From: Candidatus Amesbacteria bacterium RIFCSPLOWO2_01_FULL_48_25
GTDB lineage: Bacteria; Patescibacteriota; Microgenomatia; CAZETR01; Amesbacteraceae
Assembly: GCA_001773695.1 (NCBI GenBank)
Contig: MEXN01000003.1
Coordinates: forward strand, 25,547-89,546
Length of the DNA stretch: 64,000 nt
Reading direction: 5' to 3'
This document shows positions 24,716 to 59,746 of this stretch, piece by piece (within the stretch, counting starts at the first letter, position 1; the number at the start of each line of letters is the position of its first letter). The notes under the pieces are model-generated. The model worked only from the letters and a program-made list of their open reading frames with translations, made no database searches and had not been told where the DNA came from. The translations under genes were made by a program, and so were the position numbers.

Positions 24716-26177
24716 TGTAGAACCGGCGAAAATCCGATACTAATTCTTTACCGGTTAATATGTAAATTGCTATAGCGAAAGTGGATACAGAAATCACAAT
24801 GTTAATAAATAGATTGCTAATAAAAATCGATACAGAAAGCATAATAACTGTAGCTACGGCTGGCTTTAGAAAACTGTCTTTGAGACTAAAGTCTACGTAC
24901 CTCTTGACAATAATAACCGGAACCACTGATGACAACGCGATGATCGCGGTAGCGTAAGCAACACCTAAATAGCCAAACTTTAGGGCTAAGGCCGGAGTCA
25001 GAAGCCAGGCGAGAGCTGTCCACATAATCATAAGGTAAGTATTTATTTTGACTTTTCCGATGGCGTTTAAAGTGTTGGTCAAGGGGGTTGAGATGGCTGC
25101 TAATGCACTATTGAAACAGTACAAAGCCAGGGGAATGAGTGCGGTTTCCCATTTTGAGTAGCGGGGAATTATCTTGACTGCCAGTGGAGCTAATGTGGCC
25201 AGTAAGGCAACTATCGGGAAGGTGATGAGAGAGATGAAAAAAAGAGTTTTTTCGATGGCCTTTTTAAGTTCTTGGGGATCGTGCTGGAGACGGGAATAAG
25301 CCGGGAAGGTGACTTTGGTGACGTTGTCCATGATAAAGCGGAGGGGTTTCTGGGACCAGGTCTGGGCCCAGCCGATTATTCCTACCCCATCTGCGCCGAT
25401 GATTTTCCATAAGAAAATATTTAAAAAGCGGTCTTTAACCACGGCCATTAAAGAATTAATCTGGTAGGGGAGTCCGAACGAAAGTAAGGTCTTTAGAGAT
25501 GTTTTGGATAGTTCTAGGCCAATTTTCCAGGGGGCCAAGTAATAAATTAGACCCGTGCCGATGATGCCGCGAAAAAGAACCGCCCAAGCGTATGAGGCGA
25601 CTCCCCTCCCCTGCCAAGCCAAAATTACGGCAATTGTATAAAACACCAATGTTTCAATAACTTCGACTGAAGCTAATATCTCAAAGCGGAGCTGGCGTTC
25701 GAGAACAACCGAGGGAATGGTTTTAAGCGAAGCCAAAAAGAAAGCTATCAGCAGACTGTAGAATAACCAGGTACCGCCGTTTGTGATTTGATAGTAGTTA
25801 AAGAGCCAGGGAGAAATAGTAATAGTGAATAGTAATAGTAATAGCACTAAAATCTGCTGAAATGTAAACGTGGTGCGTAGATCAGAAAGAGTGACTTTGT
25901 CTTTTTTTTGAATTAATGAGGCGGCTAGACCAATATCGGAGAAATACCCCAATATAGAGACTAAATCATTGACGGCTATAAATAACCCGATTTCTGGGCG
26001 GCCTAGAAATACTGAAAGTAAAAAAAAACCGCCAGTGGCAATGATTTGAAGGATAAAAGACCGGCTGATGAGGGTAACCACTCCGGTTAATGACCTAGTC
26101 TTGACCGTGGTCAAATCCACATCCCCAAGCGTAACTTCCGCATCCATGCGATCATTATACCCAAGATCAGTGTCCAA
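24693..26177 (-). CDS. Wzx-like oligosaccharide flippase (MOP superfamily, Polysacc_synt-like)
   Basis: 494 aa, about 12 TM helices. FLGRPEIGLFIAVNDLVSILGYFSDIGLAASLIQKK matches the conserved first loop of Wzx/Polysacc_synt proteins. Confidence 0.65.
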   Translation of the reverse strand: MDTDLGYNDRMDAEVTLGDVDLTTVKTRSLTGVVTLISRSFILQIIATGGFFLLSVFLGRPEIGLFIAVNDLVSILGYFSDIGLAASLIQKKDKVTLSDLRTTFTFQQILVLLLLLFTITISPWLFNYYQITNGGTWLFYSLLIAFFLASLKTIPSVVLERQLRFEILASVEVIETLVFYTIAVILAWQGRGVASYAWAVLFRGIIGTGLIYYLAPWKIGLELSKTSLKTLLSFGLPYQINSLMAVVKDRFLNIFLWKIIGADGVGIIGWAQTWSQKPLRFIMDNVTKVTFPAYSRLQHDPQELKKAIEKTLFFISLITFPIVALLATLAPLAVKIIPRYSKWETALIPLALYCFNSALAAISTPLTNTLNAIGKVKINTYLMIMWTALAWLLTPALALKFGYLGVAYATAIIALSSVVPVIIVKRYVDFSLKDSFLKPAVATVIMLSVSIFISNLFINIVISVSTFAIAIYILTGKELVSDFRRFYNVLVKKT

Positions 26178-38455: not shown

Positions 38456-38504
38456 AATTACATGATACAGGCTGACGGTTTGATTTGCATTAGGCTTCCG
38501 GTAA

Positions 38505-44720: not shown

Positions 44721-44739
44721 TGACCCTATTATGAAGAAT

Positions 44740-46114: not shown

Positions 46115-46131
46115 CTTATGATGAGCAGGAG

Positions 46132-47364
46132 TTAGTGGAGTATACTCTTCTTAAGCTGCAAAAGCAAGTATTTGAGTCTAAAGAGTATTCCTTCGTGGAC
46201 TTTTTTTACTATAATACGGTGTATTTGGTTTTCCGAGTAGTTGTGGTATTCAGTTGAGTAGTAGCCTGGCGCGGATATTAGGAGGGGATTGTTCTCTTCT
46301 AGATAGGCCAGCTGGAATCTGCCTTGAGAGTCTGTCTGAACGGTGCGAACAGTTGAGAATATTTGGGCTTTAGCCACCGGCTCGTCTAGAGCGTTGACAA
46401 TAATCCCGGAGATGGTTTTGGGAATGTAGTAGGAAGTCAACATACCTACAGCAGACCTGGATTTACCACTAGTGCTCCACAACTGGGTTGAACCACCAAC
46501 GCTGGTCCAATAATTGACGCCGATGACTGATTTTGTCAGACTAAGCCCTCTCAGAGCCGAATCCAGCCAGCCGGACTGCTGGATTTCGGTCATATTCCCA
46601 TGTAAGTCTTTGATGGGTACCCCAAATTCCCCTAAAATAATTTGGGCGCCTGTTTTGGAAGATAAGTCAGAAAGATCGTTAACTAGTTTTTGGGGAGAGG
46701 AAACGTAGTGGTCAACGGCGATAATCCCCCCCAGTCCGGCTGATGTGGACGAATCCATAATGAGCTTGGCTACGTCTAGGTTGTGAGAGTTGAGCACCAA
46801 AACTTGTTTGTTGATTTTAGTAAATGCGGTAGAGGCTTTTGAATATTGCTGGAGAAGAAAGCCTCTGTAACCAGATACATCTCCGGTGTGCCTGGGGTCG
46901 CCAATTCCGCCGTTCTCACACTCCGGACAGGGAGAGAAAACATCCCCGTCGGCAAACATTTTTGGATGGCTGGTTATAAATTTTTCCGTTTGAATTAATA
47001 GGTCTTCTCTGGATATGGAGGGATAGTTGAACCAACGTTCCCAGCCGGACCAATTGCCACGAAACCATACCCCGAGGTTGTATTTGCGAGCGGTGGATAC
47101 CCAGCGGGATAGGAAAGGGTAAAATTCTTCGTCATAAGGGGTGGCAATGGCCACGTAGGTGGCGCCGGTAGCGGCAATGTTTTTGATTTGCTGGTCTATG
47201 ACTGCATCGAATTTGTTATCGTTTAACTTCTCCCGGGCTAGATCACGAGAATACTTCATGGTATCCACCGATTGAATTTGCCAAAGAGTGGTCCGGGGAG
47301 CGGCATGTATTGTCTGGACAGAGATGGCTAACGCTAACGGCAGTAGAAATATTGCGGCCATCAT
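46132..47364 (-). CDS. Secreted glycoside-hydrolase-like protein (TIM-barrel-like, GEFG motif) with a C-terminal carboxypeptidase-regulatory-like beta-sandwich
   Basis: 410 aa. Signal peptide. ILGEFGVP and PECENGG are possible catalytic motifs. The C-terminal GIIVNALDEPVAKAQIFS...TDSQGRFQL is CarboxypepD_reg-like. Family assignment is uncertain. Confidence 0.4.
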   Translation of the reverse strand: MMAAIFLLPLALAISVQTIHAAPRTTLWQIQSVDTMKYSRDLAREKLNDNKFDAVIDQQIKNIAATGATYVAIATPYDEEFYPFLSRWVSTARKYNLGVWFRGNWSGWERWFNYPSISREDLLIQTEKFITSHPKMFADGDVFSPCPECENGGIGDPRHTGDVSGYRGFLLQQYSKASTAFTKINKQVLVLNSHNLDVAKLIMDSSTSAGLGGIIAVDHYVSSPQKLVNDLSDLSSKTGAQIILGEFGVPIKDLHGNMTEIQQSGWLDSALRGLSLTKSVIGVNYWTSVGGSTQLWSTSGKSRSAVGMLTSYYIPKTISGIIVNALDEPVAKAQIFSTVRTVQTDSQGRFQLAYLEENNPLLISAPGYYSTEYHNYSENQIHRIIVKKVHEGILFRLKYLLLQLKKSILH

Positions 47365-48947
47365 TTTTGATTTTTAAATACGGGTTGGTATTGGAGCTGG
47401 GAGAGATAATCGGATCTTATTTCGTAGACGTCGGCGAAGGGTAAATGGAATAATAGGTCATAGCTGGAAAAACCCTGGGTGCGACTGACGAACTTCCAAG
47501 TAAGATCATTGTCATCGTAGGTGCGCATAATAATCCACCTGGCCCACCGTTCCGGGGCAGTTGTCGCCGCTTCCCAATATGCCCCGGTGCCTTCATGGAT
47601 AAACCGTTTCATGGGTAGGCCCGATGAGAAGATAATGGCGTCGTGCGAGGCTGCCGAAATGAGGATAAATCCGGGCTGGTTTTTGGCATATGTATTTAAA
47701 AACCCGGCTACCTCAGAAACGTTTTTTTGGCTGGCGCCCACCCGGGCATCGTCTATGGTCACTGCGTCCTGGTTGGCCATGGCAAAGAACAGGACGAAGG
47801 CGGTCAGGCCCACGACGGTCCAGCGAAGGTGTCCGGCCTTGTGGACTAAAAAGCCCAAGAAGATAGCGATGGAGGGCATAAGCATGACTCCGTAGCGGAC
47901 ATTAAACCAGGTGTTTCCAGACAAACCTTGGACAAAAAGAACCGAAAAGCCTAAATATAGTGCCAGTATATTAAAGGCCAATGGGGCCAGGAGGGTGAGG
48001 CTGGCAAGCTTGGTGGATAAAGATAGTGCTTTATCCTTAAGTAAAATTATTGCCCCTATTAGACCAAGGATGGCAGGGAGAGTATAAGAGTTGTACATTA
48101 GGGCATAGAAATAGATTTTGGTCGATAGGCCTAGGTTACCTTTGGTAGCTAAAACGCCGGCAGCAGATAATTGAGCTTGTTGAGCGCGAGCGGAAAAGGG
48201 GCCGAAAGCAAAATACAAAGCATCTTTGAAAATCAATTGATTCCATAAAAACCAAAGAGCAATCCCCAATCCCCCCAGAGTGCAAAATATAATGGTCATG
48301 CCTTCGGCGGTAGAGTAATTTTTCTTTTTCCAAGTGTGGAGAGCGACGAGAATTGTCGAGAACAAAAGCAAGAACCAGCCGTCGTAGCGGATAAGAGTGG
48401 ACAACATAATCCAGAAGGCGGACTGAATGAGCTCCAAGAGGTTATCCGTCTGGTGCCAAACCAGAAGCTTGTAACAGCCGGCGGTCATGGTGGCTAAAAG
48501 CATCAGTTCGGTCATGGCCGTGGATTGAAGATATAAAACATTTAAGTTAACGGCAAAAACAGCGACTCCCACCAAGCGACCAAGCGAGCCGACTTTTAAT
48601 CTTTCTAGAAACTTGTAAATCAAAATGCCGGTGGCCACAAAGGCGGCCATAGACTGAATGGCCCCGGAGAGGCCCGAGTGCCACATGAAGTCGTTGCCTA
48701 TCGTGGGAATCATGAGGGCGTGGGTCAGAGGCAGCCAGACGGAACCGAGCTGAGCTAATCCCGGCTTGAGCCCTTCCACCACGCGCCGACCAATATCTAG
48801 GTGCGACCTAGCGTCGTTATAGGCGAGTCCCAGGCCGTTTTGGAGAAACCGCAAATAATAGACTACCGATAAAACTACTAAACTTGTAAAAATCAGCCTG
48901 AGGAAAAGACGGGAAGAGTTAGTGACGTTCATAAGCTGTGTGTCCAA
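47361..48947 (-). CDS. Polytopic membrane protein with C-terminal soluble domain (putative GT-C-type transferase)
   Basis: 528 aa. YNDARSHLDIGRRV...VWLPLTHAL, about 12 TM helices, then a ~130-aa soluble tail. Confidence 0.45.
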   Translation of the reverse strand: MDTQLMNVTNSSRLFLRLIFTSLVVLSVVYYLRFLQNGLGLAYNDARSHLDIGRRVVEGLKPGLAQLGSVWLPLTHALMIPTIGNDFMWHSGLSGAIQSMAAFVATGILIYKFLERLKVGSLGRLVGVAVFAVNLNVLYLQSTAMTELMLLATMTAGCYKLLVWHQTDNLLELIQSAFWIMLSTLIRYDGWFLLLFSTILVALHTWKKKNYSTAEGMTIIFCTLGGLGIALWFLWNQLIFKDALYFAFGPFSARAQQAQLSAAGVLATKGNLGLSTKIYFYALMYNSYTLPAILGLIGAIILLKDKALSLSTKLASLTLLAPLAFNILALYLGFSVLFVQGLSGNTWFNVRYGVMLMPSIAIFLGFLVHKAGHLRWTVVGLTAFVLFFAMANQDAVTIDDARVGASQKNVSEVAGFLNTYAKNQPGFILISAASHDAIIFSSGLPMKRFIHEGTGAYWEAATTAPERWARWIIMRTYDDNDLTWKFVSRTQGFSSYDLLFHLPFADVYEIRSDYLSQLQYQPVFKNQK

Positions 48948-50442
48948 CTAAAAGACCCAGACCGCTGATAACGATTGGGAACAAAATCAGATGATAGTAT
49001 TGCCAGCTATTGAAGTATTTAGAACCAAAAGCCTTAAAGGCGAATGATTTGAGACGACCGGCTGATAAATGATCAAAATTTCTGCCAACGGTATATTTTT
49101 GTTGCATGCCGGAAATTTTCTCCAAGGCTAAAATTTCTACTTGCGGGGGATTGGCACTGGAAGTGAGGGCACCTGCTAAGTTGACGGCAACGGAATAGAC
49201 AAACAAGGCAAAGAAGAGGGCTGAAACCAATGGTTTGGGGCGGGATTTGGAAAGACCCACCCCAATAAAAATGGCTGATAGAGCATATGAAGGGATTAGG
49301 TAGCGGGACCCGAAACCCCACCCCCCCCACGGGTCTCCCCATAAAGAATATAGAACCAGATTTATGCCCAAAACACTTATAAGTAAAGGTAATAATGGGT
49401 GGTGAGAGCGAAAGAGATAAGAAGCGCCAAAGATTGCTAGGATTACGATAGGGGCGAAATATATAATCCCACGATCCGGACTAATAAAGTGGATGTAAAG
49501 TCCATTTAGTAGATTACGAGATTTAAAAAAGTTGACAGCAGATTTTTTTTGAATTTCCGGACGGACAAATCTCTCTAAGTCCTGCTGTGTATTTTGGGCG
49601 GCTTGGGGCACGCCCGGACGACCTTGAGCATCGATAGCTCTGACACCGGAGATGGTACCGGCGAGTTGAAAGGGGTTGCCATATGATTTGAGGTTAAAAT
49701 AACCGAGCAGTACTAAAGGAGGAACTACGGCCAGCACTGATAATAGTTTAATTGGACTTTTTTTGACATTGAATGTTTTAACCAAGGCGAAAAGTGCGAT
49801 AGGGACAAACATAACTAAGTTGGGATAGTCAACCGTGAAGGAAAAGGCCATGAAAAACCACACCAATGCCAGTCTTTTAAAATTGGGGGGTTGGGTCAAA
49901 AGATAAATACTAGTCAGAATAAGAAGAGTAGACGCGTGGTGTTGGTAGAGACTGACAGAGTAGGCAAAGGCAGGAGTAGCAAATAGAAATGTCAGTCCGG
50001 CTAGGCTGCCTGTGAAGAGTGAAGCGCCAAGTTTGCGGGAGATGACCCCAACGAGCAAGAAGTTGAGAAACGCAAACAAGGAAACGGTGGCATAGGATAA
50101 CAAGGGGCCGGAACCAATTAGTTTTCCTAACAAGTATCCCGGAGCGATCAGAAACGATAGCCCTGGTGCAAACAGAGAAACGTATTTGCCGTCTTTGTAA
50201 CCTAAGTCGGGAACGGCAAATCTGGCCAGAGGAATTGAATAGTGAAAGGAGCCATCTTCGATCAGGGAAAAGGTGACAGAGAATCGCCCTCTTTCAACAG
50301 ACAACTCGAATGGCCCACCTTCCGACCAACGAGGCGTGTTGAGTTCGCTGGCCGTGGGGTTACCCAAAAGCCCTCTGACTGAGCCGGCCAAAACTATGAC
50401 GGCAATAATAGAAACTGTGATAGTTAGAAATTTACCTTTCAT
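48919..50442 (-). CDS. Polytopic membrane protein (putative GT-C-type transferase)
   Basis: Start trimmed to MKGKFLTITVSIIAVIVLAGS at 50442, giving an ATGA overlap with the GT4 stop. The ORF-track N-terminal extension is rejected. Contains a G8 tract encoding WGGW. Confidence 0.45.
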   Translation of the reverse strand: MKGKFLTITVSIIAVIVLAGSVRGLLGNPTASELNTPRWSEGGPFELSVERGRFSVTFSLIEDGSFHYSIPLARFAVPDLGYKDGKYVSLFAPGLSFLIAPGYLLGKLIGSGPLLSYATVSLFAFLNFLLVGVISRKLGASLFTGSLAGLTFLFATPAFAYSVSLYQHHASTLLILTSIYLLTQPPNFKRLALVWFFMAFSFTVDYPNLVMFVPIALFALVKTFNVKKSPIKLLSVLAVVPPLVLLGYFNLKSYGNPFQLAGTISGVRAIDAQGRPGVPQAAQNTQQDLERFVRPEIQKKSAVNFFKSRNLLNGLYIHFISPDRGIIYFAPIVILAIFGASYLFRSHHPLLPLLISVLGINLVLYSLWGDPWGGWGFGSRYLIPSYALSAIFIGVGLSKSRPKPLVSALFFALFVYSVAVNLAGALTSSANPPQVEILALEKISGMQQKYTVGRNFDHLSAGRLKSFAFKAFGSKYFNSWQYYHLILFPIVISGLGLLVGHTAYERH

Positions 50443-51608
50443 GAGCCGAGGGCTGTTGTATACATTTTTTCTACCTGGAGGGAGATGTTTTGCCAAGAAT
50501 GGCCTCGGGTAAAATCTGTATTGCGCTTGCGCATTGCCAATATCTGCCTGGCATGAGAGGAATCGAGAATGTACTTGACAGCATCGGCCACTGATACCTC
50601 GTCGTATTCGGGGACACAAAAGCCATTTATCTTGTCTTTTATCAACTCTTCCAAGGCAGTGCCTCGGGATACGATACAAACACAGCCCTGACTCATCGAT
50701 TCGTGAATGACGTTACAATAACTTTCCCAAAGAGCCATGTGGACATTGACTACAGAATGTCTAAGCCAATAGTATTTATTTACACCAGAAATGACTCCTA
50801 AGAAATGCACCCGATCGAATAGGCCAAGTTGGGATATTAAGAGATCTAGAGACTTTTTATATTCGGGGTCGGTTACAGGGCCGATGATTACAAATTGGAT
50901 GTCTTGAGGTAAGTGTTTTAGCGCTTTAATGCCGGTGGCTTGATTTTTGATAGGGTGGATGCGACCGATCTGGATAAGATACCGGCCTAGTTTTCGGACT
51001 TGGTCTGTGGTTACTTGATTGGCTAGTTTTTCGATTTGGGTATAGACCTCTCTCTCCAAGCCGTTGTGAATAATGTGGATAATGTCTGGTCGCATCCCGT
51101 GTTTGATGCTTTCGACTGCCTCCCAATCCGAGACGGAACGCAGCCCGTCTACTGCCGCATTAATAAGATGCACTCCTAAAATTTCTTGATAGGTTTTTTT
51201 GATGAAACGAGAAAGGGGTGAAAAAGTTCTCCACTCGGGAGTGAAACCGCCGTGAGGGGTAAGGAAAACTTTGGGAGAACTCATTCCAAGAGTACGACGG
51301 ATGAGGACTATTATTAGGAGCCATGAGTGGGGAAAGATATTAAAATTGTGAAGTGCAATGGCAGGAGTATGTGCCCAGTCTATGCGGGGAACAAAGCCGT
51401 ACCAACGCCAAGGATAACGATGGATATTCATGCCGTCGAGATGATCGATTACAGGAAGGGAGTTTTTGGCCTCTGGCATGTCAGTCGAGGTGTGGATTGT
51501 GACATCCCAGCCGTGGGAAACCATGTGCTTATAGACGTTTCTGACATTGATTTCTATTCCTGCTGCCAGGGGATAAAAGTACTTGACGATGACATCTATT
51601 TTTTTCAT
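50439..51608 (-). CDS. GT4 (group 1) glycosyltransferase
   Basis: Start trimmed to MKKIDVIVKYFYPLAAGIEIN at 51608, with an ATGA overlap. The C-terminal ...ESYCNVIHESMSQGCVCIV...ELI is a GT4 E(x7)E-type region. Confidence 0.7.
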   Translation of the reverse strand: MKKIDVIVKYFYPLAAGIEINVRNVYKHMVSHGWDVTIHTSTDMPEAKNSLPVIDHLDGMNIHRYPWRWYGFVPRIDWAHTPAIALHNFNIFPHSWLLIIVLIRRTLGMSSPKVFLTPHGGFTPEWRTFSPLSRFIKKTYQEILGVHLINAAVDGLRSVSDWEAVESIKHGMRPDIIHIIHNGLEREVYTQIEKLANQVTTDQVRKLGRYLIQIGRIHPIKNQATGIKALKHLPQDIQFVIIGPVTDPEYKKSLDLLISQLGLFDRVHFLGVISGVNKYYWLRHSVVNVHMALWESYCNVIHESMSQGCVCIVSRGTALEELIKDKINGFCVPEYDEVSVADAVKYILDSSHARQILAMRKRNTDFTRGHSWQNISLQVEKMYTTALGS

Positions 51609-52276
51609 TTGATTGCGACCAGGGTAACTATACATGGGTATCTGACATCTGTAATCTCCAGATCCGCGATATTTACGTCTTGTTGGGACATGCCTACCCA
51701 AAAGTACTGGCCGGCTAGGACGTTGCCGTAAGTTTTTATATCTATGTTTTTTGACCTGAAATACTTTCCGAATATGTATTTGACAGAATAAGGAGTGAAA
51801 CGCCAATAGACTTTTTCTTTTAAGATCGGTCCCAGACAGGATGAGGTAAAAAGCAAGACTCCTCCCGGCTTGAGGATGCGATGGCATTCACATGCGGCCG
51901 CCTGGACATCGTCAATTAGACCCAAGACGTGAGTCAGAATAAGGCAATCGTAAGTATTGGATTTTACGGTAGTTAAATGCTTGAGGTCGCCATGAATAGT
52001 GGCGAGTTTATTTTTTGGATTGATGTCTAGCACGTCACTTTTAGTAACTTTTAAGCCAAATTTGATAGTATAAAATGAATCAGTGACTTCAAGGCATCTG
52101 CCAGTTATAAGTTTTTTATTAGCTGTGAGAAATTTTTCGATCCAATACCTATCTATTGGGTTTCCCCGATCGAAGCCAAATTTGTGGCTTAACGGCTTGG
52201 CGCTTGGCCTGGCTAACCAATATAGTCCGGCTGGGCGGAAAAGACGCATGATAAGAGCACGAATTTTTGAAATCAT
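51605..52276 (-). CDS. Class I SAM-dependent methyltransferase
   Basis: 223 aa. CLEVTDSFY...VLDINP...YDCLILTHVLGLIDD...LKPGGVLLF. Confidence 0.55.
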   Translation of the reverse strand: MISKIRALIMRLFRPAGLYWLARPSAKPLSHKFGFDRGNPIDRYWIEKFLTANKKLITGRCLEVTDSFYTIKFGLKVTKSDVLDINPKNKLATIHGDLKHLTTVKSNTYDCLILTHVLGLIDDVQAAACECHRILKPGGVLLFTSSCLGPILKEKVYWRFTPYSVKYIFGKYFRSKNIDIKTYGNVLAGQYFWVGMSQQDVNIADLEITDVRYPCIVTLVAIK

Positions 52277-53934
52277 TTTGTTAAACTCTTGGAACTAACC
52301 ACCATGTCCCAACGACTACTGACATTTGTTTGAGGGAGTAACTGCGATCTCAAAAAGGTAAATGAGACTAGCATTAAGTATAGAACGGCATAAATGGGAG
52401 ATTTAATAAATTCCCAAAATCCGGAAAAGAAATAAAGATACCACGGAGGATTGAAGTTGTTGTTCGTTATTTTTCGTCCGGAATTAAAGTAGCGCCAACT
52501 TTGTTTCCAGTGATCGGCCAGGGTTTTTGGTAAACGGTAGTAGATTCTAGTACTGGAAACAAATGTGTACTTAAAACCATGCAACTTGGCAAAAACATAA
52601 GTAAATTTGTCCTCCCCCCCCGAGTTGGGAAAATGAATGGCTTTGGCCAGACGCCGTGATAGGGCCCTAACTGGGCCGTGGCAAGACAGCGCGTTGTCAC
52701 CACCATTGAATGACTCGAAAACCCGGTTTTTTCCAGCCATGCCAACACTTAGAGTTTTCTCTAGCCAATTGGTGGGGGGAAGATGACGAATCGGGCAGGA
52801 AACCAGATCGGCTGATTCATTTACGAAGGGACGGGTAATTTGGGAAAGAAAGAAGGGATCGAAAACTCTGATATCGGCGTCCATTAATAGTGTCACATCG
52901 GAATCGGATCGAGAAAGCAAAACATTGTTGGCGTGGGTCCGACCGTGGCGCTTTTGGGAAGAGATTAAGTCTATCCGAGGATCAGAAAATCCGCGAACTA
53001 TTTTGTCCGTGTCGTCCGTGCTACCATCCGAATAGACTAGAATTTTTTGTAATTTGTAATGGGGGGAAGGGAAATGATTGAGTAAGTCATCGAGAAATTT
53101 AGCAATGTTTTGGGATTCGTTGTGAGCCGGAACTGTGACGGTTACTGATAGTTGTTTAACTGGAGAAGAATGATAAAAAGATTCCAATTTGGGGATATTT
53201 GATAAATTGCCTTTGAATATTGCTTTGACCTGTGAGGTATATTGGGATATCGAATTGATTTTCTGTGAATGATTTAAAGAGACGACCAATTTTTTAGGAT
53301 TTAGAAGTTGAACAAATTTGGGATCAACTGAAAATTTGAATATATAAGGAAAATCTTCCCAGTAATAAACATTTGTAAATGTTTGGGCGCATAAGTCGCG
53401 GACGATCACATGATCTACGTGATTACCCACTGCCATTGGGCAAAAAATCAAAGAACTAGGAGCGTTAATAATATTTAATAGCCTTTTTCTTACTTGAATT
53501 AGAGTCTCCAAATCTTTTTCGGAAACTTGTCCACGAGAAATATGCCATCTATAAGTTGGGTAGATTTTTTCACGCCACAGAGCATCGGTGAATCCCAAAT
53601 TAACTACTTTGACATGCGGGAAGAAGGAAAAGGCCCGTTTGTCTTCTTGTATGCGGACTTTTTGCAGCACGATTGGATCTTTAAAACCACTCTGGCGAAG
53701 GAATGCGAGTTGAGATAACGATTGAGGCCCGGCGTGTGTTTTAGTGAAGATGTTTATGACAGTTACCGGAACTTTATCAGAGAGATATGAGATTAGTCCC
53801 CCGGCTGAAAATAATGCATCGTCGAGATGGGGGGAAATAAAATAGACAGGAGTGTTGTTTTTGATGATATTTTTGATTGTCTTGGTCATACTGGACTGAG
53901 AGAAATTCCCTTCTTTAGCAAGTTGGTGTACCAA
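52273..53934 (-). CDS. Bifunctional fusion: N-terminal PIG-L/LmbE-family de-N-acetylase plus C-terminal family 2 glycosyltransferase
   Basis: 553 aa. The N-terminal VYFISPHLDDALFSAGGLISYL...MAVGNHVDHVIV is a PIG-L signature. The C-terminal VTVTVPAHNESQNI...ILVYSDGSTDDT...LLMDADIRV is GT2. Contains a G8 tract encoding SGGE. Confidence 0.65.
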   Translation of the reverse strand: MVHQLAKEGNFSQSSMTKTIKNIIKNNTPVYFISPHLDDALFSAGGLISYLSDKVPVTVINIFTKTHAGPQSLSQLAFLRQSGFKDPIVLQKVRIQEDKRAFSFFPHVKVVNLGFTDALWREKIYPTYRWHISRGQVSEKDLETLIQVRKRLLNIINAPSSLIFCPMAVGNHVDHVIVRDLCAQTFTNVYYWEDFPYIFKFSVDPKFVQLLNPKKLVVSLNHSQKINSISQYTSQVKAIFKGNLSNIPKLESFYHSSPVKQLSVTVTVPAHNESQNIAKFLDDLLNHFPSPHYKLQKILVYSDGSTDDTDKIVRGFSDPRIDLISSQKRHGRTHANNVLLSRSDSDVTLLMDADIRVFDPFFLSQITRPFVNESADLVSCPIRHLPPTNWLEKTLSVGMAGKNRVFESFNGGDNALSCHGPVRALSRRLAKAIHFPNSGGEDKFTYVFAKLHGFKYTFVSSTRIYYRLPKTLADHWKQSWRYFNSGRKITNNNFNPPWYLYFFSGFWEFIKSPIYAVLYLMLVSFTFLRSQLLPQTNVSSRWDMVVSSKSLTK

Positions 53935-54875
53935 ATGACGTTTTCGCGGGGAGCGTTCCAGGTGAGGTTGTGAATCTCACAGTTGATCATGAGACTACTG
54001 ACCCTCTTGGTGTAATTGGGGTCTTTTTTAGATTTGGCTGAAATACGAGAAAAAAGTCTGTTTCTCAGACCGTGGCTGATACCCATAGTAGAAATAGAGG
54101 TGACAGTTTCAAACTCCGGATACGTATAAGAGACTTGTTCCACATCGAGGATATGGATCTTTTTACCGCGGAGATAGATATTTCTGAAATTCAGATCACC
54201 ATGAACAAGCGTGGATTGATAATAACCTGTGAAAGCCGAAATGTTTTTGACAAATACCCAAATACCGCGAAGAATATCCAAGAATAAATTGGGGTGCTCG
54301 AAAATTGCGGCGATGGTGATTAGGGGCAGTATGCATAAATATTCCCCGATGAGTTTATGGCGGAACTGGGATACTTCAAGTCTGGTCATGTGGCGACCCA
54401 AAAATCTTAAATAGCCAACTACTTGATTGTGTATTTGGATCTGACGACGTGAATCATGGACTTTCGCCAGTGGTTTACCCAAAATAAATTTTGTTCCTAA
54501 AATTAATTTATGTTTTTCGTGGCGGGAGAAAGCCACGTTAGGTATGGAAAGTGCTTTGTACTTTGGTGGGAGAATATGGGCGACCCGGTCGTGGACATTG
54601 TTTAAGATTTGGATTGAGGTAAGCTGATGAAGCAGGTCATAATAATGGATGTCTTTTCTCTTGCCAGTCCAAATCTTCATAACAACCCGCAACCCTAACG
54701 GGTCTTGATATAGGCCCACTTTGAATGGAAAATGTTTTTCCGGTTGCAAATCACGAATTAACTTGAAGCGATCAATATGTTGGGGCATCTGCCTGGGAAC
54801 GTCCCGAAACCTTTTTTCGAATAGGCTGTTGTATAAATAACTAAAAATGATATTGACAAGCTTACTGATATTCAT
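53886..54875 (-). CDS. Protein-kinase-like fold phosphotransferase (APH/ChoK/Kdo-kinase-like)
   Basis: 329 aa. Catalytic-loop-like LVHGDLNFRNIYL (HGDxxxxN), then IHILDVEQVSY, which is DxE/DFG-like. Confidence 0.5.
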   Translation of the reverse strand: MNISKLVNIIFSYLYNSLFEKRFRDVPRQMPQHIDRFKLIRDLQPEKHFPFKVGLYQDPLGLRVVMKIWTGKRKDIHYYDLLHQLTSIQILNNVHDRVAHILPPKYKALSIPNVAFSRHEKHKLILGTKFILGKPLAKVHDSRRQIQIHNQVVGYLRFLGRHMTRLEVSQFRHKLIGEYLCILPLITIAAIFEHPNLFLDILRGIWVFVKNISAFTGYYQSTLVHGDLNFRNIYLRGKKIHILDVEQVSYTYPEFETVTSISTMGISHGLRNRLFSRISAKSKKDPNYTKRVSSLMINCEIHNLTWNAPRENVIWYTNLLKKGISLSPV

Positions 54876-57800
54876 ATGCTGGTTGATGGCTTAGGGGAAC
54901 ATCAATTTCGGGAACTAGGAGAAGTTTGACTGCCTCTAAAAAAGACCGTGATTGTGATTCCCAGGAGAATTGGCGAGACCAGGCTTGAGAATTTTTGGAA
55001 AAATATTTGAGGATCGAGGGGCGGTGAATCAGGGATTTAATCGTATTTGCCAAGGTATATGGATCAAGGGGGGGAACCAGGATACCGGTTTGGTTGTGGC
55101 GAACCGAATCGCGAAGACCAATTACATCCGAGGCGATGGCGGGAGTGCCACAAGCGTTGGCTTCGATGACGGTAATCCCCCACCCTTCGAACGAACTGGG
55201 CTGAAGCATGGCCCAAGATTGGGACAACAACTGGACTTTTTCTTTCTCCGTCACCCGGCCGAGAAAATAAACATTATTACTTAAGTTTAAATCTTCGGCG
55301 AGGTGCCGCAATTCTTTTATCCCCTCACCGACTCCGGCAATGTTCAGCCGGGCTTTGGGATGATCACGAACCACTTGAGAGAAAGCCCGAATAGCCACGT
55401 CTATATTTTTGTACGGGCGGATCCGGCCCACATAAACAAACGATGGATTTTTTGTTTTTGGCGCTTTGCGGATGTACTCCCTAAGAGTAATCCCGGGATT
55501 AACTATGGTGATATCTTCCGGACGGCTTAAACCGATGCGGACGATGTCGTTTTTGGAGGATTCGGAGACAGTAATAATCTTTTGGTTATGGTAGACAAGG
55601 GGCATGAGACGGGATTCCAAAGCCATGGCAAACTGAGCCACGGGAAAGGGCAGACGGCCCTGGAAAATTATTTTATCCTGATGGATGTGATGGATGAGGA
55701 GAATTTTGGGAATACGGGCGAATAGTGGAGTAAAAAATGGGATACCGTTTTCAGAGTCGATAACAATGTCAAATCGGTTCCGAAGACGCAACAAATAATA
55801 TATTACAGCCCAGAAATAGACTGTGTAAAAACCGCCATGGCGAATGATTTTCACTCCGTCGATTGTTTCCTTGCGGGGACAATTGCCGTCATTGCCGCAA
55901 AAAATGGTGACCGTATGGCCCTGGGCAGCCCAACGCTTGCCAAGCTCGTGAATATAGACCTCGGCGCCGCCGGCCCATTTATGGCGGATGTCCCGCCAGT
56001 TGAAAATTAGAATCCGGAGAGAATCCGATTTGGATGGGGAAAGTTCGCGAGGAAAAAAGCGGATCAATAAATCCCATAGATCCCTGATGTTGTTGGTCAC
56101 CGACCAGGAAAACTGGTAATAGAAATGGAGCATGAGAAAACTGCCCAGGTAAACTAAACTTAAAACCAGCATGACAGTGACTAAATCCGCAAGACTTGAA
56201 TGGAAAAAGTAGACTAAAACCGGTTGGAGGGAAGCTAAAATGAAGCCTAAAATGGGAAAGACATATTGGCGACGGGCTTGGTGATAATTGACGATACTAC
56301 CAGACAGGGTGAAGTTGACCATGGCCAGGCAGTACCAGGTTAACAAGGGGATGACGGAAATGATCTTCGGGCCGAAAAGAAGAGGAGCGAAAATTGACCC
56401 CAATGGCCCCAAAGCGACAAAGCCCATGATACTGGTAACGCTATTGCCCAGCAACAGGCGGTAAAACAGCGGCTTGGGATTGGCACCTTCCCCCTCGGCC
56501 CGACTGACTACGGGGATGATGAATGGATCAAATAAAGAGCCTAGAAAATAAACAATTTTACCGGCTAACGATATCAGAACATATTGACCGGCGATAGCGG
56601 GAGGTAAATAGATTTTGGCTAAGATTACGTCCAAACTCAAAAACGCCAGAGATGAAAGCTTGATAAGAATCGAGGTGCTAAAAAACCGAAAGGGGAAATG
56701 GGGTGCTGATTGCAGGGTCTTTGTGGCAACTATTTGGGGTTTGATAGCTCTGACTGCCAACCAACAGACTGCGAGAGCGGCGACTAATGAGAGAGGGTGA
56801 GAAGCGTATATATATTGGGGCCAACCCAAGCGGACAAAAAAGACGGCGAAAGCAAACTTGGATACAGATTCGACAGTGACCATAGCAGCAAGTACCGCAA
56901 ACCGGTGATGGCCAGCTAGGAATCCCCGATTCGTGGCCACTAAGGCAGTCGCTAACCATAACGGGGTGATAAGGAAAAACGGAGTCGTATTGCCGTTTGC
57001 TTGGAAAACCCGGGACATCCACGGAATGACCGCGATCCAGACGGCTGTCACTCCTAGCGAAATATACAAAACCCGACTTTTGATAAAGTTCCAAAAGTGG
57101 TTTACATAACGGTTCTTTTGACCCAAAAGAAATGCTACCCGGTGCGAGAGAGTTTTGGAGAGAGCGGTGGTAGGGATTTGCACCAAATAGGCAATACTAC
57201 CCATTAGGCCCACCAGACTGAATTCTTCTATGGAAATGGCCCGACCCAAATATATGTTGTAGAGAAAATTGAAAAAATTGCTGAGCATGGTAGAGGCTAC
57301 CAGAAGCGTGCCTCCCTTAAGTAAGGGTTGGGGTAGAACTCCCAGCCGTCCAAATTGATGAGAAACAAAGTTCCTCAGGCTTGAGAGCCAGGACTGACGG
57401 GCTTCTTTGGAAACTTCGAACAAATGGAGACCGTGGTGGGTTTTTTCCCAGTAATAGGGACGGAATACCAACTGCCAGAATGCCTTGAAAGCTGCTAGGC
57501 TTATAAACAGCCAGTAGAGGGGGACGGCAAATACGTATTTGACCAATTCCCACCGGCCGCGTTTGGCACAGCCAATCATGTAGTAATAGAGGTAGAGAAA
57601 ATTGCCGAAAATAGCGGAGAAGGCAGCCAGATAAAAGATGGCGGCGGGATAGAGGGACTCGATAGTGGGTCCGACATATTTATAAAGAGCAAAATAAGAA
57701 ATTGTCGCCAGCCACAAGAAGGGGTTAATAAGCATAAATGCGATCCGGCCGCCGACGATAAGCTGAAAAATTAGAGCGTGCCAACCGTGGGACTTTAAAA

Positions 57801-59571
57801 ACCTTAAGGGATGGCGATTATGAACAAAAAAGGTTTGCAGGTAGCCCTTGATCCAGCGGGAGCGCTGACGTAACCAGTTACCAAGATCGCTGTTGGCTTC
57901 CTCCAGAGTTGTGGAGTCAATAATGGCGGTGGTGTAGCCTTCTTTAAACAGTCTGGCGCCCAGATCGCAGTCCTCAGTAACATTGAAGGCGTCCCAGCCG
58001 TGGAGACTTTTTAAAATGGTGGTTCGGAAATGATTTGAAGTCCCGCCTAATGGAATAGTGGTCCCCAGTGACTGAAGGCCGGGGAGGACAACGTCGAACC
58101 AGAGGGAATACTCGGTAGTGAATAATCGGGTCAAAAGGTTGTGGTGGGGATTGTAGTAATTGAGTTTGGCTTGGAGGCACGCGGTTTGGGGAGGGACGCG
58201 GTGAGTAAAAGTGAAATACGCCTTTTTGAGTTGGTCCGGCTCGGGACGGTCCTCCGCATCATAGATGACGATGTATTCTCCTGTGGCCCGGGATAGGCCA
58301 TAATTGCAGGCTTTGGGTTTGGTCTTGGGATTCGAATGAGGGACAACGACGACGTGGAAGTAGTCCGGGAGAGCCAAGTTTTTAGCTGCTTCCCGCGTTT
58401 GGTGATCGTCTTCTTCCAGAAGCAGAAGAACTTCCAGTTTATCTTTGGGCCAGTCCAGCTGAGAAATGTTTTCTACAAACTGAGGCAGGACCCGGGCCTC
58501 GTGATAGAGGGGGCAAAGAATCGTGTAAACAGGGAGTTTATCAGTTGCCCAGTTTTGCAGTTGAGCCACTGAAATGGAGATTTCAGGGGGTGACTTGAGA
58601 CTTCTGTAAATTAAAATGAAGTTGAAAACAACGTCGGCAAAATAAATGGCTGAGAGCAGGCCAACAAGAGTGATGGCTGTAGACTGCGGCCAGAGGAGAA
58701 AGCTGACGGACATTAGAGCGAGAGCGCCCAGAAGAGCTAGTTTTTGAAGTCGATGTAGGGTCACTATGGCGGAGTAGTGATGCGGCAGGGTGGAGTGAGT
58801 AACATAGCCGCGACGACGGTAGATCATACCGGCTCCGGCCATTGAACTGTTTGAGGCTGGTGGCAGGGAATAGATTTTTCCGGGCGAAAATCGCAATCTT
58901 ATGGCGGTGGTACTAATTTCTCTGGCGGCTTGAAAAAATTCTGACCGGGCTTGAGATGATCCGGACTCCCTGGGTGTAAAGGTGATGGGAACGACCCCTA
59001 TTGAGTAACCCAATTCACGGGCTGTATGCAGAAGCGGCATGTCTATCGCCCATGCTCTGACGTCACTTTCGGATAGATGGACGGCAACTTCCCGCCGGAA
59101 AAGTTTTAACCCCGATTGGACATCGCAGTTCAGCCCCAGAAGTAGTCGGCCAAAGATAAAGGTGTTTAGGTGGGAACCAATTTTACGTAACAGTGAGGAA
59201 TGGGACTTGGTCCGGTTGGCGACCACGACACCATGGACGGCAAGCTGGGGATACATCTGAGGGATGGCTTCAGGAGGATATTCCAAGTCCCCGTCAATCA
59301 TGGCCATAAAAGGAGCGGAACTTGCACGAATGCCTTCGATAATGGAAAAGGCCTTCCCACGCATCCCTCTTTTCACAACCAATCTTATGGGGTACTTTTG
59401 GGAAAGTCGGGTGATAAGTTCGCGGGTGTCATCTGTAGAGTGGTCGTCGACAAAAATTATTGAGTATGGAATCTTGGCTTTTTGCAGGCTGGAATTTATG
59501 CGGCGGGTAAGTTCAACTAGACTGGCCTCTTCGTTATAGACGGGGACGATGATATCTAATCTTCTGGACAT
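54862..59571 (-). CDS. Giant multidomain glycosyltransferase (1569 aa): GT2 (DPM1-like), TM helices, processive GT2 (QxxRW), TM bundle with MOP/Wzx-like domain, then GT4
   Basis: A single uninterrupted ORF. Residues 1-230 are DPM1-like (IIVPVYNEEASL..IIFVDDHSTDDT..AMIDGDLEYPP). About 340-620 is synthase-like GT2 (YDAEDRPEPDQL...TEDCDLGARL...QRSRWIKGYLQ). The central region has more than 15 TM helices and includes GRAISIEEFSLVGLMGSIAYL, which is a Wzx-like loop. The C-terminal ~400 aa is GT4 (ILIFNWRDIRHKWAGGAEVYIHEL...QPSSFEGWGITVIEANACGTPAIASD). Confidence 0.75.
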   Translation of the reverse strand: MSRRLDIIVPVYNEEASLVELTRRINSSLQKAKIPYSIIFVDDHSTDDTRELITRLSQKYPIRLVVKRGMRGKAFSIIEGIRASSAPFMAMIDGDLEYPPEAIPQMYPQLAVHGVVVANRTKSHSSLLRKIGSHLNTFIFGRLLLGLNCDVQSGLKLFRREVAVHLSESDVRAWAIDMPLLHTARELGYSIGVVPITFTPRESGSSQARSEFFQAAREISTTAIRLRFSPGKIYSLPPASNSSMAGAGMIYRRRGYVTHSTLPHHYSAIVTLHRLQKLALLGALALMSVSFLLWPQSTAITLVGLLSAIYFADVVFNFILIYRSLKSPPEISISVAQLQNWATDKLPVYTILCPLYHEARVLPQFVENISQLDWPKDKLEVLLLLEEDDHQTREAAKNLALPDYFHVVVVPHSNPKTKPKACNYGLSRATGEYIVIYDAEDRPEPDQLKKAYFTFTHRVPPQTACLQAKLNYYNPHHNLLTRLFTTEYSLWFDVVLPGLQSLGTTIPLGGTSNHFRTTILKSLHGWDAFNVTEDCDLGARLFKEGYTTAIIDSTTLEEANSDLGNWLRQRSRWIKGYLQTFFVHNRHPLRFLKSHGWHALIFQLIVGGRIAFMLINPFLWLATISYFALYKYVGPTIESLYPAAIFYLAAFSAIFGNFLYLYYYMIGCAKRGRWELVKYVFAVPLYWLFISLAAFKAFWQLVFRPYYWEKTHHGLHLFEVSKEARQSWLSSLRNFVSHQFGRLGVLPQPLLKGGTLLVASTMLSNFFNFLYNIYLGRAISIEEFSLVGLMGSIAYLVQIPTTALSKTLSHRVAFLLGQKNRYVNHFWNFIKSRVLYISLGVTAVWIAVIPWMSRVFQANGNTTPFFLITPLWLATALVATNRGFLAGHHRFAVLAAMVTVESVSKFAFAVFFVRLGWPQYIYASHPLSLVAALAVCWLAVRAIKPQIVATKTLQSAPHFPFRFFSTSILIKLSSLAFLSLDVILAKIYLPPAIAGQYVLISLAGKIVYFLGSLFDPFIIPVVSRAEGEGANPKPLFYRLLLGNSVTSIMGFVALGPLGSIFAPLLFGPKIISVIPLLTWYCLAMVNFTLSGSIVNYHQARRQYVFPILGFILASLQPVLVYFFHSSLADLVTVMLVLSLVYLGSFLMLHFYYQFSWSVTNNIRDLWDLLIRFFPRELSPSKSDSLRILIFNWRDIRHKWAGGAEVYIHELGKRWAAQGHTVTIFCGNDGNCPRKETIDGVKIIRHGGFYTVYFWAVIYYLLRLRNRFDIVIDSENGIPFFTPLFARIPKILLIHHIHQDKIIFQGRLPFPVAQFAMALESRLMPLVYHNQKIITVSESSKNDIVRIGLSRPEDITIVNPGITLREYIRKAPKTKNPSFVYVGRIRPYKNIDVAIRAFSQVVRDHPKARLNIAGVGEGIKELRHLAEDLNLSNNVYFLGRVTEKEKVQLLSQSWAMLQPSSFEGWGITVIEANACGTPAIASDVIGLRDSVRHNQTGILVPPLDPYTLANTIKSLIHRPSILKYFSKNSQAWSRQFSWESQSRSFLEAVKLLLVPEIDVPLSHQPAYEYQ

Positions 59572-59687: not shown

Positions 59688-59711
59688 CAAAAAAACGCCC
59701 CCGGATGGGCA
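59688..59711 (-). terminator. Possible weak rho-independent terminator downstream of 59747..60511
   Basis: The minus strand reads GCCCAUCCGGGGGC followed by GUUUUUUU. This is a short GC stem plus a U-run. It is weak. Confidence 0.2.
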
Positions 59712-59746
59712 TAGTGGGAGATTATACTATAGTACCTAAAACTTTG

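Follow-up and report, generated by a model that had tools for sequence, protein, structure and literature searches.

We analysed a 64,000-nucleotide stretch of contig MEXN01000003.1 from Candidatus Amesbacteria bacterium RIFCSPLOWO2_01_FULL_48_25, referred to below as the window, and describe a gene whose single product of 1569 residues joins, from the N-terminus, a DPMS-like family 2 glycosyltransferase (GT2-A), a synthase-type family 2 glycosyltransferase (GT2-B), a Wzx-like flippase module of the MOP superfamily and a family 4 glycosyltransferase (GT4). Comparison of independent assemblies confirmed that this fusion is a genuine conserved multi-enzyme of the Microgenomates (Patescibacteria, the candidate phyla radiation or CPR) and no assembly artefact. 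With a probability that we put at about one half, the protein would unite the cytoplasmic-face and the membrane steps of one surface-glycan pathway, combining a backbone synthase with the supply of flipped lipid-linked sugars for glycosyltransferases of the GT-C type.

The fusion gene and its conservation

The open reading frame (ORF) occupies 54862..59571 on the minus strand and is the first gene of its operon. It starts with an ATG at 59571, ends with the stop codon at 54862-54864 and consists of 1569 codons plus stop without any internal stop. A preliminary description, made from the sequence alone, had reported one uninterrupted ORF of this length in exactly this interval and left the strand unstated. 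A plus-strand reading was excluded, the plus-strand frame of 54862..59571 being riddled with stops, and a chance ORF of 1569 residues at 45-49% GC is effectively impossible. The four modules announced in that description were all recovered in one chain by the Pfam scan (Polysacc_synt below its cutoff), with structure prediction and Foldseek backing the two membrane modules, and both motifs quoted in it were located in the translation, QRSRWIKG as residues 569-576 and the MOP/Wzx-like loop GRAISIEEFSLVGLMGSIAYL as residues 776-796. The gene is preceded by an intergenic region of 175 nt. As this region holds a terminator-like hairpin with a T-run 3' of the upstream gene (59695..59712, minus strand; consensus match only), the fusion gene appears to open a new transcription unit.

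NCBI holds an identical protein, A2634_05175, annotated as a hypothetical protein of Candidatus Amesbacteria bacterium RIFCSPHIGHO2_01_FULL_48_32, and the identical protein is present on 12 contigs. More than 110 further homologue clusters of 1510-1600 residues (query coverage 98-100%, identity 48-70%) were drawn from independent assemblies of four sources, NCBI, JGI, ENA and Logan. The full-length homologues belong to Gottesman-, Woese-, Roizman- and other Microgenomates. When 120 homologues were aligned, 282 positions proved at least 95% conserved; the conservation values given below refer to this alignment. Conservation is highest in GT2-B (mean column identity 72-82%) and lowest in the MOP module (40-61%).

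Split or frameshifted versions are occasionally found in other assemblies (locus L029 with a frameshift inside the MOP module, L025 and L034) and could suggest that the gene is a chimeric assembly, contains a missed frameshift or stop, or is a decaying pseudogene. Against this stand the occurrence of the identical protein on 12 contigs, the independent full-length homologues from four data sources, the frame without internal stop, the inclusion of every catalytic motif among the 282 conserved positions and the confident folding of both predicted modules, GT2-B and MOP (pLDDT >91). The preliminary description had itself raised the question of a chimera or frameshift. Because the gene is conserved across independent assemblies, this worry is answered: a chimera or frameshift is effectively refuted and we consider an artefact of any kind practically inconceivable.

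Modules and membrane topology

GT2-B (57430..58752, minus strand; residues 274-714) was delimited by Pfam, NCBIfam, AlphaFold2 (AF2) and Foldseek. Two transmembrane (TM) helices, TM1 (274-293) and TM2 (295-326), precede a GT-A catalytic domain, which is followed by an amphipathic interface helix carrying the QRSRW sequence (563-584), by TM3 (597-628) and TM4 (643-670). A further hydrophobic helix (674-703) bears positive charge on both flanks in the helix and charge analysis and for that reason is most simply read as an interface or re-entrant helix, the TM complement of the module thus being four helices plus this one. The module closes with the invariant motif P705-x-x-W-E-K-T-x-H-G714, next to which the variable linker begins. 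A function of PxxWEKTxHG as a 'gating loop' was considered and rejected: no sequence alignment with BcsA or hyaluronan synthase (HAS) reaches this region and the analogy is one of position only. Three signatures are invariant both in the 120 homologues and in a cross-phylum set (all minus strand): D438-A-E-D441, a DxD-type metal/nucleotide motif (58249..58260); T532-E-D534, the TED motif (57970..57978), which by analogy with BcsA-type synthases we take to be the catalytic base; and Q569-R-S-R-W573, the QxxRW motif (57853..57867).

The Pfam families Glyco_tranf_2_3 and Glyco_trans_2_3 match residues 349-629 of GT2-B with E-values of 1e-28 and 6e-25, respectively. The nearest NCBIfam models are PgaC/IcaA and CelA, none of which reaches its cutoff. 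The membrane modules were predicted separately with AF2, each from an alignment of 66 homologues. Residues 258-740, comprising GT2-B, were modelled with a mean predicted local distance difference test score (pLDDT) of 91.4. With this 483-residue query, the top Foldseek matches were BcsA (9b8v, 4.8e-15, 446 columns), HAS (8e-15, 513 columns; 8smn and 7sp7, Xenopus and Chlorella-virus enzymes), the 'minimal' mannosyltransferase PcManGT (6yv7) and chitin synthases, and the synthase alignments span about 450-560 columns. Motifs, four TM helices and a fold match over the whole module thus agree with the earlier assignment of GT2-B as a synthase-type enzyme with QxxRW and TM helices of its own. Neither PilZ, MshEN, BcsB nor PgaD was found in the fusion protein or in the CPR loci by Pfam and locus scans.

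The MOP module (56077..57330, minus strand; residues 748-1165) comprises 12 TM helices in two lobes of six. AF2 predicted residues 735-1165 as an all-helical 12-TM bundle (pLDDT 92.7, predicted TM-score (pTM) 0.89). Among PDB structures, Foldseek ranked the lipid III flippase WzxE first (9g9p, TM-score 0.72/0.76, 421 columns), ahead of MurJ and MATE transporters. In the predicted structure, residues 748-1165 certainly make up a complete MOP fold, in line with the Wzx-like flippase domain of the preliminary description. Assignment to the Wzx/PST subtype is based on gene context, on a weak Polysacc_synt match of residues 750-1000 (E 8e-5, 22.6 bits, below the cutoff of 28.2) and on precomputed matches to PF01943 in about 20 of the 120 homologues listed and to PF13440 in two. 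No MatE match was obtained for the module with Pfam. A loop of the PST type, G776-RAISIEEF, follows the first TM helix of the module; R777 and D981 are at least 95% conserved. The fused module had been likened to a stand-alone MOP flippase encoded elsewhere in the window (24693..26177; Polysacc_synt_3, E 1e-45). The two share the superfamily fold, but a sequence relation was not detectable, BLAST and HMM comparisons giving no match and hhalign a probability of 0.9%.

GT2-A (58867..59571, minus strand; residues 1-235) is a GT-A domain of the DPMS/ArnC/GtrB type, with Glycos_transf_2 (PF00535) matching residues 7-163 (E 8e-37). Its best sequence match in the PDB is the Pyrococcus dolichol-phosphate mannose synthase DPMS (5mlz, E 1.9e-19, residues 2-217), followed by ArnC (1.3e-15) and GtrB (4e-10), and polyprenyl-phosphate glycosyltransferases of these three kinds account for the top seven of 11 matches. 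The DAD motif of 5mlz aligns with D93-G-D95, and D43, D47, D93, D150 and Q152 are at least 95% conserved. The nearest NCBIfam model, ArnC, stays below its cutoff. The DPM1/GtrB-like character proposed earlier is therefore upheld by fold, DxD motif and nearest solved relatives, and GT2-A is presumed from its sequence to be a polyprenyl-phosphate sugar synthase. Neither a GtrA_DPMS_TM domain nor TM helices of its own were detected by Pfam and helix analysis; TM1 and TM2 (274-326) were assigned to GT2-B and not to GT2-A because the Firmicutes relatives of GT2-B include both. Between GT2-A and TM1 lies a conserved cytoplasmic peptide (58753..58866, minus strand; residues 236-273) with the consensus SMxGAG...THxTLPHxxSA, in which G248, T258, H259, L262, S267 and A268 are at least 95% conserved. 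GT2-A is missing from a sub-clade of homologues of about 1330 residues. Homologues without GT2-A still keep the peptide.

GT2-B and the MOP module are connected by a variable cytoplasmic linker (57331..57429, minus strand; residues 715-747), which shows the lowest conservation of the alignment, 26% gaps and pLDDT values of 34-65, and which forms a natural split site between [GT2-A+GT2-B] and [MOP+GT4]. The GT4 module (54865..56076, minus strand; residues 1166-1569) is a retaining glycosyltransferase of GT-B fold. Both Pfam halves of a complete GT4 domain were found, as the preliminary description had it: Glyco_transf_4 (PF13439) at residues 1201-1363 (E 2e-17) and Glycos_transf_1 (PF00534) at residues 1370-1530 (E 2e-42). 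G1201-G1202, R1383, K1388, E1462 and E1470 are at least 95% conserved, the two glutamates forming the E-x7-E motif. All sequence matches of the module in the PDB are GT4 enzymes, and its NCBIfam matches (MshA, EpsE, Agl16 and BshA) all lie below cutoff.

Loops rich in lysine and arginine occur in the MOP module at 818-822, 888-890, 943-960 and 1100-1103. This positive-inside charge pattern fits a 12-TM module with both termini inside. The placement of both MOP termini on the glycosyltransferase side follows also from fusions without MOP (L022, L023, L026, L027 and L030), in which GT2-B runs directly into GT4. Enzymes that use nucleotide sugars must be cytoplasmic. The helix and charge analysis, a check that the preliminary description had called for, places all three transferase domains on the cytoplasmic face.

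Homologues, partner genes and genomic context

The module combinations found in other organisms were surveyed in two ways. An exhaustive phmmer search with the MOP module over 1.84 billion representatives yielded 132 proteins at E<=1e-30, and the best 150 MOP-subfamily representatives were classified with hidden Markov models (HMMs) of the modules. MOP alone was found in 77, MOP+GT4 in 32, MOP with a C-terminal GT2 in 12, GT2-B+MOP+GT4 in 11 and the full set of four modules in nine; a few showed other orders. In addition, species-representative genomes were scanned for GT2-B and the resulting loci (L-numbers) classified by module HMMs. Patescibacteria contain full fusions, forms without GT2-A, forms without MOP and true splits. 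In L006, [GT2-A+GT2-B] and [MOP+GT4] are separate genes with a gap of about 20 nt, and similar splits are present in L041, L047 and L048, while in the MOP-less fusions named above GT4 directly follows GT2-B. In the fusions of L036 (743-6513) and L040 (7170-12823) only the C-terminal six-helix lobe of MOP is left, and the next gene downstream encodes a complete MOP of this subfamily as a separate protein. This indicates that the function of MOP is required and can be provided in trans. L040 also has two extra GT2-A+GT2-B paralogues on the opposite strand. The split, MOP-less and half-MOP forms are classic signs of modules that serve one pathway (the Rosetta-stone argument). The fusion had been called highly unusual. 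This holds in that such an architecture was not described in the literature searched; it does not hold for its occurrence, as the fusion is common in Microgenomates and forms one extreme of a range that includes split and partly fused versions. Many records of metagenome-assembled genomes (MAGs) titled 'uncultured Gammaproteobacteria', 'Bdellovibrionales' or 'Pseudomonadales' (L010, L013, L015, L018-L022, L024, L033, L035 and others) carry the Patescibacteria-type fusion gene and operon; the taxa under which they were submitted are apparently mistaken.

Including its two N-terminal TM helices, GT2-B has relatives outside the CPR that are 46-54% identical over about 450 residues. They occur in Paenibacillus, Cohnella, Clostridium drakei, Desulforamulus, Sporolactobacillus, Nocardioides, Paraconexibacter, Solirubrobacterales and Chloroflexi, stop right after the WEKTxHG motif and possess, in place of GT2-A, one to six N-terminal MshEN modules that bind cyclic di-GMP (c-di-GMP), with NfrB-like matches. 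One homologue of 1380 residues from a Chloroflexi MAG (L059, 5250-9389) has six tandem MshEN modules before the synthase (Pfam E 3.7e-90). In a set of 82 sequences that includes 34 from outside the CPR, 105 GT2-B positions are near-invariant, among them residues of the TM helices and of the C-terminal motif. No family-type MOP was found within 8 kb of the non-CPR relatives. Fusions of MshEN with glycosyltransferases have been noted earlier (PMC5013675), the only characterised example in the literature searched being E. coli NfrB, whose domain order differs (PMC10118264); neither the four-module fusion nor the MshEN-GT2 family was described there. By these comparisons GT2-B is an orthologue-grade family of predicted regulated exopolysaccharide synthases, apparently uncharacterised.

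Across all phyla, GT2-B is accompanied most constantly by the protein encoded at 47361..48947 (minus strand), a divergent GT-C of the PMT_2/ArnT-like type that we term Y. The adjacent gene at 48919..50679 (minus strand) encodes X, which is polytopic (about 11 TM helices) and a CPR-specific distant paralogue of Y. A GT-C partner lies beside GT2-B in 56 of 60 loci; X or Y is present in 33 of the 36 CPR loci (X in 27) and Y in 23 of the 24 non-CPR loci. The window copies of X and Y have no Pfam match of their own. In a cross-phylum alignment of the Y family, 11 of the 22 members match PMT_2 (best E 4.6e-8) and three match PMT, and an N-terminal YxDAxSH motif including D45 is nearly invariant; a PDB profile search with the family gave no match. 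The sole link of X to Y is an hhalign comparison (probability 97%, E 1e-10, 304 columns). Because members of Y match PMT_2 or PMT and X is a distant paralogue of Y, both are putative divergent GT-C glycosyltransferases, X presumptively so. Enzymes of the GT-C type take their sugars from polyprenyl-phosphate carriers at the outer side of the membrane. In L055-L058 from Chloroflexi (Ktedonobacteraceae / Chloroflexia; ORFs of 970-1002 residues), GT2-B carries Y as a C-terminal fusion, and the partnership is thus realised in another way.

In Firmicutes loci, a gene for a GtrB-like GT2 fused to a GtrA domain adjoins the GT2-B gene. The operon of Clostridium drakei SL1 (L069, 3307-11695) encodes a ManC-like protein, Y, GT2-GtrA, MshEN-GT2-B and a BcsB-like protein (PF03170, E 7e-39). 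The locus of Paenibacillus foliorum (L084, 2007-16542) is flanked by genes for a GH26 beta-mannanase with CBM35 and a GH92 alpha-mannosidase. Judged by neighbouring genes only, the Firmicutes polymer may be a mannan. BcsB-like genes are confined to five Firmicutes loci and one Chloroflexia locus; such a partner was also looked for in the CPR loci and none was found.

Downstream of the fusion gene, the operon continues on the minus strand with genes for a kinase-like protein, a deacetylase fused to a GT2, a methyltransferase, a GT4, X and Y. The kinase-like gene (53886..54875, 329 residues, APH/RIO clan) shares its first 14 nt with the end of the fusion gene and shows a faint RIO1 match. Jackhmmer ties it to a Pfam-APH gene of L001 and to the genes right after the fusion gene in L006, L008, L012, L014, L016 and L025. 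The ORF has no sequence match in the PDB and is assigned as a kinase from synteny with the APH-annotated genes. The PIG-L-type de-N-acetylase fused to GT2 (52273..53934), the S-adenosylmethionine (SAM) methyltransferase (51605..52276) and the stand-alone GT4 (50439..51887) are conserved operon components, the deacetylase of homologous operons being either Polysacc_deac_1 (CE4) or PIG-L. Homologues of the fusion gene in Woese-, Gottesman- and other lineages are followed by these genes as well.

Directly upstream of the fusion gene lies an ORF of 254 residues with two predicted TM helices (59747-60511) that has no Pfam or PDB match and is kept in this position in L003/L007, L005, L015 and L017. 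Just beyond it, at 60528-63152, lies a hydrolase module of cell division that consists of FtsE, FtsX and an M23/PcsB-like peptidase. This arrangement also precedes the L003 homologue, so that synteny reaches beyond the glycan operon.

The window is almost wholly a glycosylation island, with nearly all genes on the minus strand. At least 10 of them encode polytopic GT-C-like proteins of about 480-590 residues. PMT_2 matches were obtained at 3021-4613, 6063-7592, 10659-12251, 21702-23129 (plus strand), 27775-29277, 32204-33670 and 33660-35108; PTPS_related-like genes are located at 1453-3024 and 26111-27778 and a GT87-like gene at 8219-9415. GT2 genes number about a dozen, and there are three genes for GT4 enzymes and two for methyltransferases. 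Three small soluble GT2 proteins of 230-247 residues (29278-30021, 30008-30751 and 35090-35782) are 26-30% identical to GT2-A; their genes each adjoin GT-C genes and look like repeated pairs of a lipid-sugar synthase and a GT-C. A fusion of GT2 with GtrA_DPMS_TM, i.e. of a donor synthase with a small flippase-type domain, is encoded at 37319-38668. A complete dTDP-rhamnose operon (rmlD, rmlC, rmlB, rmlA; 39860-42977) lies about 12 kb downstream of the fusion gene, and in the Gottesmanbacteria homologue L004 dTDP-sugar genes directly follow the fusion gene. Three proteins that are probably secreted or located at the surface (CAP domain, fn3 and CarboxypepD_reg-like) are encoded between the rml genes and Y (43833-47364) and are possible glycosylation targets.

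Proposed mechanism and its alternatives

From module identities and order, conserved catalytic signatures, topology and co-occurrence, each established above, we infer the following enzymatic steps. GT2-B would act as an inverting processive synthase of the BcsA/PgaC/HAS type and build a backbone polymer at the membrane, while GT2-A would load a sugar onto polyprenyl phosphate. GT4, probably with the deacetylase, methyltransferase, kinase-like protein and extra GT2 and GT4 enzymes of the operon, would build or prime a further membrane-bound sugar unit. The Wzx-like MOP module would flip the lipid-linked sugar or sugars, or a small GT4-built unit, to the outer leaflet and would stand in for the GtrA domain of the Firmicutes systems. 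With the flipped donors, X and Y would branch, extend or anchor the polymer extracellularly. The logic of three-component decoration by GT2, flippase and GT-C (e.g. GacI/GacK/GacL) would thereby be grafted onto a synthase, with the c-di-GMP (MshEN) gate of the free-living relatives lost and all parts welded into one chain. To prime, polymerise, flip and decorate a glycan, as first suggested for this protein, is a plausible description of its job.

We favour a true synthase for GT2-B because its relatives are MshEN-gated and, in Firmicutes, paired with a BcsB-like protein, and because of its 105 near-invariant positions. The GtrB-like GT2 fused to GtrA beside GT2-B in Firmicutes follows the same logic of donor synthase plus flippase, and the three small GT2-A-like genes of the window each adjoin GT-C genes. 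Among the ORFs scanned in the window there was no Pfam match to Bac_transf, Glycos_transf_4 or a Wzy-type family, and the lack of an initiating phosphoglycosyltransferase among them fits a monophosphate-linked chemistry. A precedent is GacI/GacK/GacL, where the GT-C has been proposed to receive its polyprenyl-monophosphate sugar through a flippase of the Wzx family (bioRxiv 10.1101/180810). Several points weigh against the proposed mechanism. It is drawn for the family as a whole from sequence comparison. The four TM helices of GT2-B may be too few for a private channel; HAS and BcsA build theirs from 6-8 TM helices of their own. MOP occurs without GT2-A in L007, L008 and L017, and GT2-A without MOP in L022, L023, L026 and L027. 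The closest fusion partner of MOP is GT4 and not GT2-A (the 32 MOP+GT4 representatives), for which reason the flipped substrate may be the GT4 product.

The modules could also act in turn on one polyprenyl-monophosphate-linked intermediate. GT2-A would prime it, GT4 and GT2-B would add sugars, the latter non-processively or as a short 'ruler' like NodC or PcManGT, MOP would flip the finished unit and X and Y would polymerise it or transfer it en bloc, as in haloarchaeal dolichol-phosphate N-glycan assembly or a Wzx/Wzy pathway without its classical initiating enzyme. Such a lipid-linked assembly line would suit the minimal GT2-B with four TM helices, the 'minimal cellulose-synthase-like' PcManGT (6yv7) among its top fold matches, the flippase in the same chain, the missing phosphoglycosyltransferase among the window ORFs scanned, the full-length if low-scoring match of GT4 to the archaeal N-glycan enzyme Agl16 and the many tailoring enzymes of the operon. 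It accords less well with the close non-CPR relatives of GT2-B, which are c-di-GMP-gated and BcsB-paired, both hallmarks of processive secretion synthases, and lack a nearby family-type MOP. Moreover, QxxRW, TED and membrane residues are invariant across phyla, which argues for the same processive chemistry in the CPR enzyme. We regard the assembly line as possible, although we would not expect it to prevail. A pathway for a glycolipid or lipoglycan anchor of the PIM/LAM (phosphatidylinositol mannoside/lipoarabinomannan) or GPI (glycosylphosphatidylinositol) type seems very doubtful. Here GT4 would add GlcNAc or Man to a membrane lipid, the deacetylase would trim it and MOP would flip the glycolipid; GT2-A would supply polyprenyl-P-Man for extension by GT-C enzymes outside and GT2-B would add a further chain. 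The best named relatives of GT4 include MshA, BshA and PimB', a PIG-L-family deacetylase follows in the operon, and PIG-A/PIG-L, MshA/MshB and BshA/BshB are known pairs of a GT4 and a deacetylase. The best relative of GT2-A is a Dol-P-Man synthase, and the window contains at least 10 PMT_2-like GT-C genes and a GT87-like gene. However, all family scores of GT4 are far below cutoffs, the deacetylase of other lineages is the CE4 type (Polysacc_deac_1) typical of polymer deacetylation, and no gene or match points to a lipid acceptor.

Two further readings assign the MOP module to export. As a conduit for the nascent polymer it might complete a channel for which the four TM helices of GT2-B do not suffice, or it might export the GT4 product in the manner proposed for PelG and PelF. 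MOP directly follows the PxxWEKTxHG motif, at the place that the final two TM helices occupy in BcsA and HAS, and MOP+GT4 is the commonest fusion pair, reminiscent of the PelG/PelF partnership known from the Pel system, in which PelA provides a deacetylase as the operon does here. Yet five fusions lack MOP altogether, the Firmicutes relatives end after the motif without it, and the linker from GT2-B to MOP is variable and predicted with low confidence. A Pel-like identity was tried and rejected, as there was no PelG match in Pfam and no PelF model among the 25 best NCBIfam matches. We judge such a conduit quite unlikely. In a broader form of hybrid export, so far unrecognised, a channel-less 'minimal' synthase would hand a free or lipid-primed polymer, with the primer made by GT2-A or GT4, to the attached MOP and so merge the synthase- and Wzx-dependent pathways. 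GT2-B and its GT-C partner Y would then represent a new cross-phylum exopolysaccharide system, c-di-GMP-gated and possibly mannan-making outside the CPR, with the CPR protein as its fully fused, constitutive form. This idea appears unlikely to us, though attractive enough to be stated.

Our preferred reading, a backbone synthase joined to a supply of flipped donors for GT-C enzymes, can be set beside known systems. GT2-B shares the D, DxD, TED and QxxRW signatures with BcsA, PgaC/IcaA, HAS, chitin synthase and NodC. As in BcsA and HAS, its GT-A domain is placed between TM helices with amphipathic interface helices, and the fold match covers nearly the whole module. Like the c-di-GMP/MshEN-gated synthase NfrB, its non-CPR relatives are MshEN-gated, some with a BcsB-like partner. 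In contrast to the processive synthases, the CPR GT2-B has four TM helices and a re-entrant or interface helix, is devoid of PilZ, MshEN and BcsB, and is fused to an N-terminal DPMS-like GT2 and to C-terminal MOP and GT4 modules; unlike in known synthase systems, GT2-B is nearly always accompanied by a GT-C partner. The fused MOP resembles the flippases WzxE, MurJ and GacK in its two-lobe 12-TM fold, the PST-type loop after TM1, the N-in/C-in orientation and the glycan operon, but it differs from Wzx/PST flippases in residing inside a glycosyltransferase chain and in its Pfam score below threshold. The Wzx/Wzy pathway differs further, as here GT-C partners take the place of an initiating phosphoglycosyltransferase and a recognisable Wzy nearby.

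With the three-component systems GtrB/GtrA/GtrX, GacI/GacK/GacL and CsbB/GtcA/YfhO, the fusion has in common that GT2-A, MOP and X/Y stand together in one operon, and the GT2 of the Firmicutes relatives is likewise fused to a GtrA domain. Here, however, donor synthase and flippase are fused to each other and additionally to a synthase-type GT2 and a GT4, and the acceptor polymer would come from the same polypeptide. The Pel system (PelF a GT4, PelG MOP-like, PelA a deacetylase) is similar in the physical coupling of GT4 to MOP and in the operon deacetylase. It differs in that PelD and PelE have no counterpart here and that two GT2 modules and GT-C partners are extra.

Every module comes from a known superfamily, and the fusion is hence not a new kind of protein. 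What is new is that a synthase-type GT2 is covalently joined to a Wzx-like MOP, a DPMS-like GT2 and a GT4 in a conserved protein, together with the wider uncharacterised system of GT2-B and GT-C that embraces this fusion. Bacterial surface glycans are taught as products of three routes, synthase-dependent, Wzx/Wzy-dependent and ABC-transporter-dependent. The fusion joins the hallmark enzyme of the synthase route and the hallmark transporter of the Wzx route in one conserved polypeptide and so cuts across these textbook classes. It constitutes a natural 'Rosetta stone' for the question of which activities work together and offers a compact single-chain target for structural work on the coupling of synthesis and translocation. 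The uncharacterised cross-phylum GT2-B family, almost always accompanied by a GT-C, may prove equally useful; it is present in cultivable Clostridium, Paenibacillus and Nocardioides, in which genetics is feasible. For the Patescibacteria, whose tiny genomes still devote a 64-kb island to glycosylation, the fusion provides a first handle on an almost unknown cell envelope.

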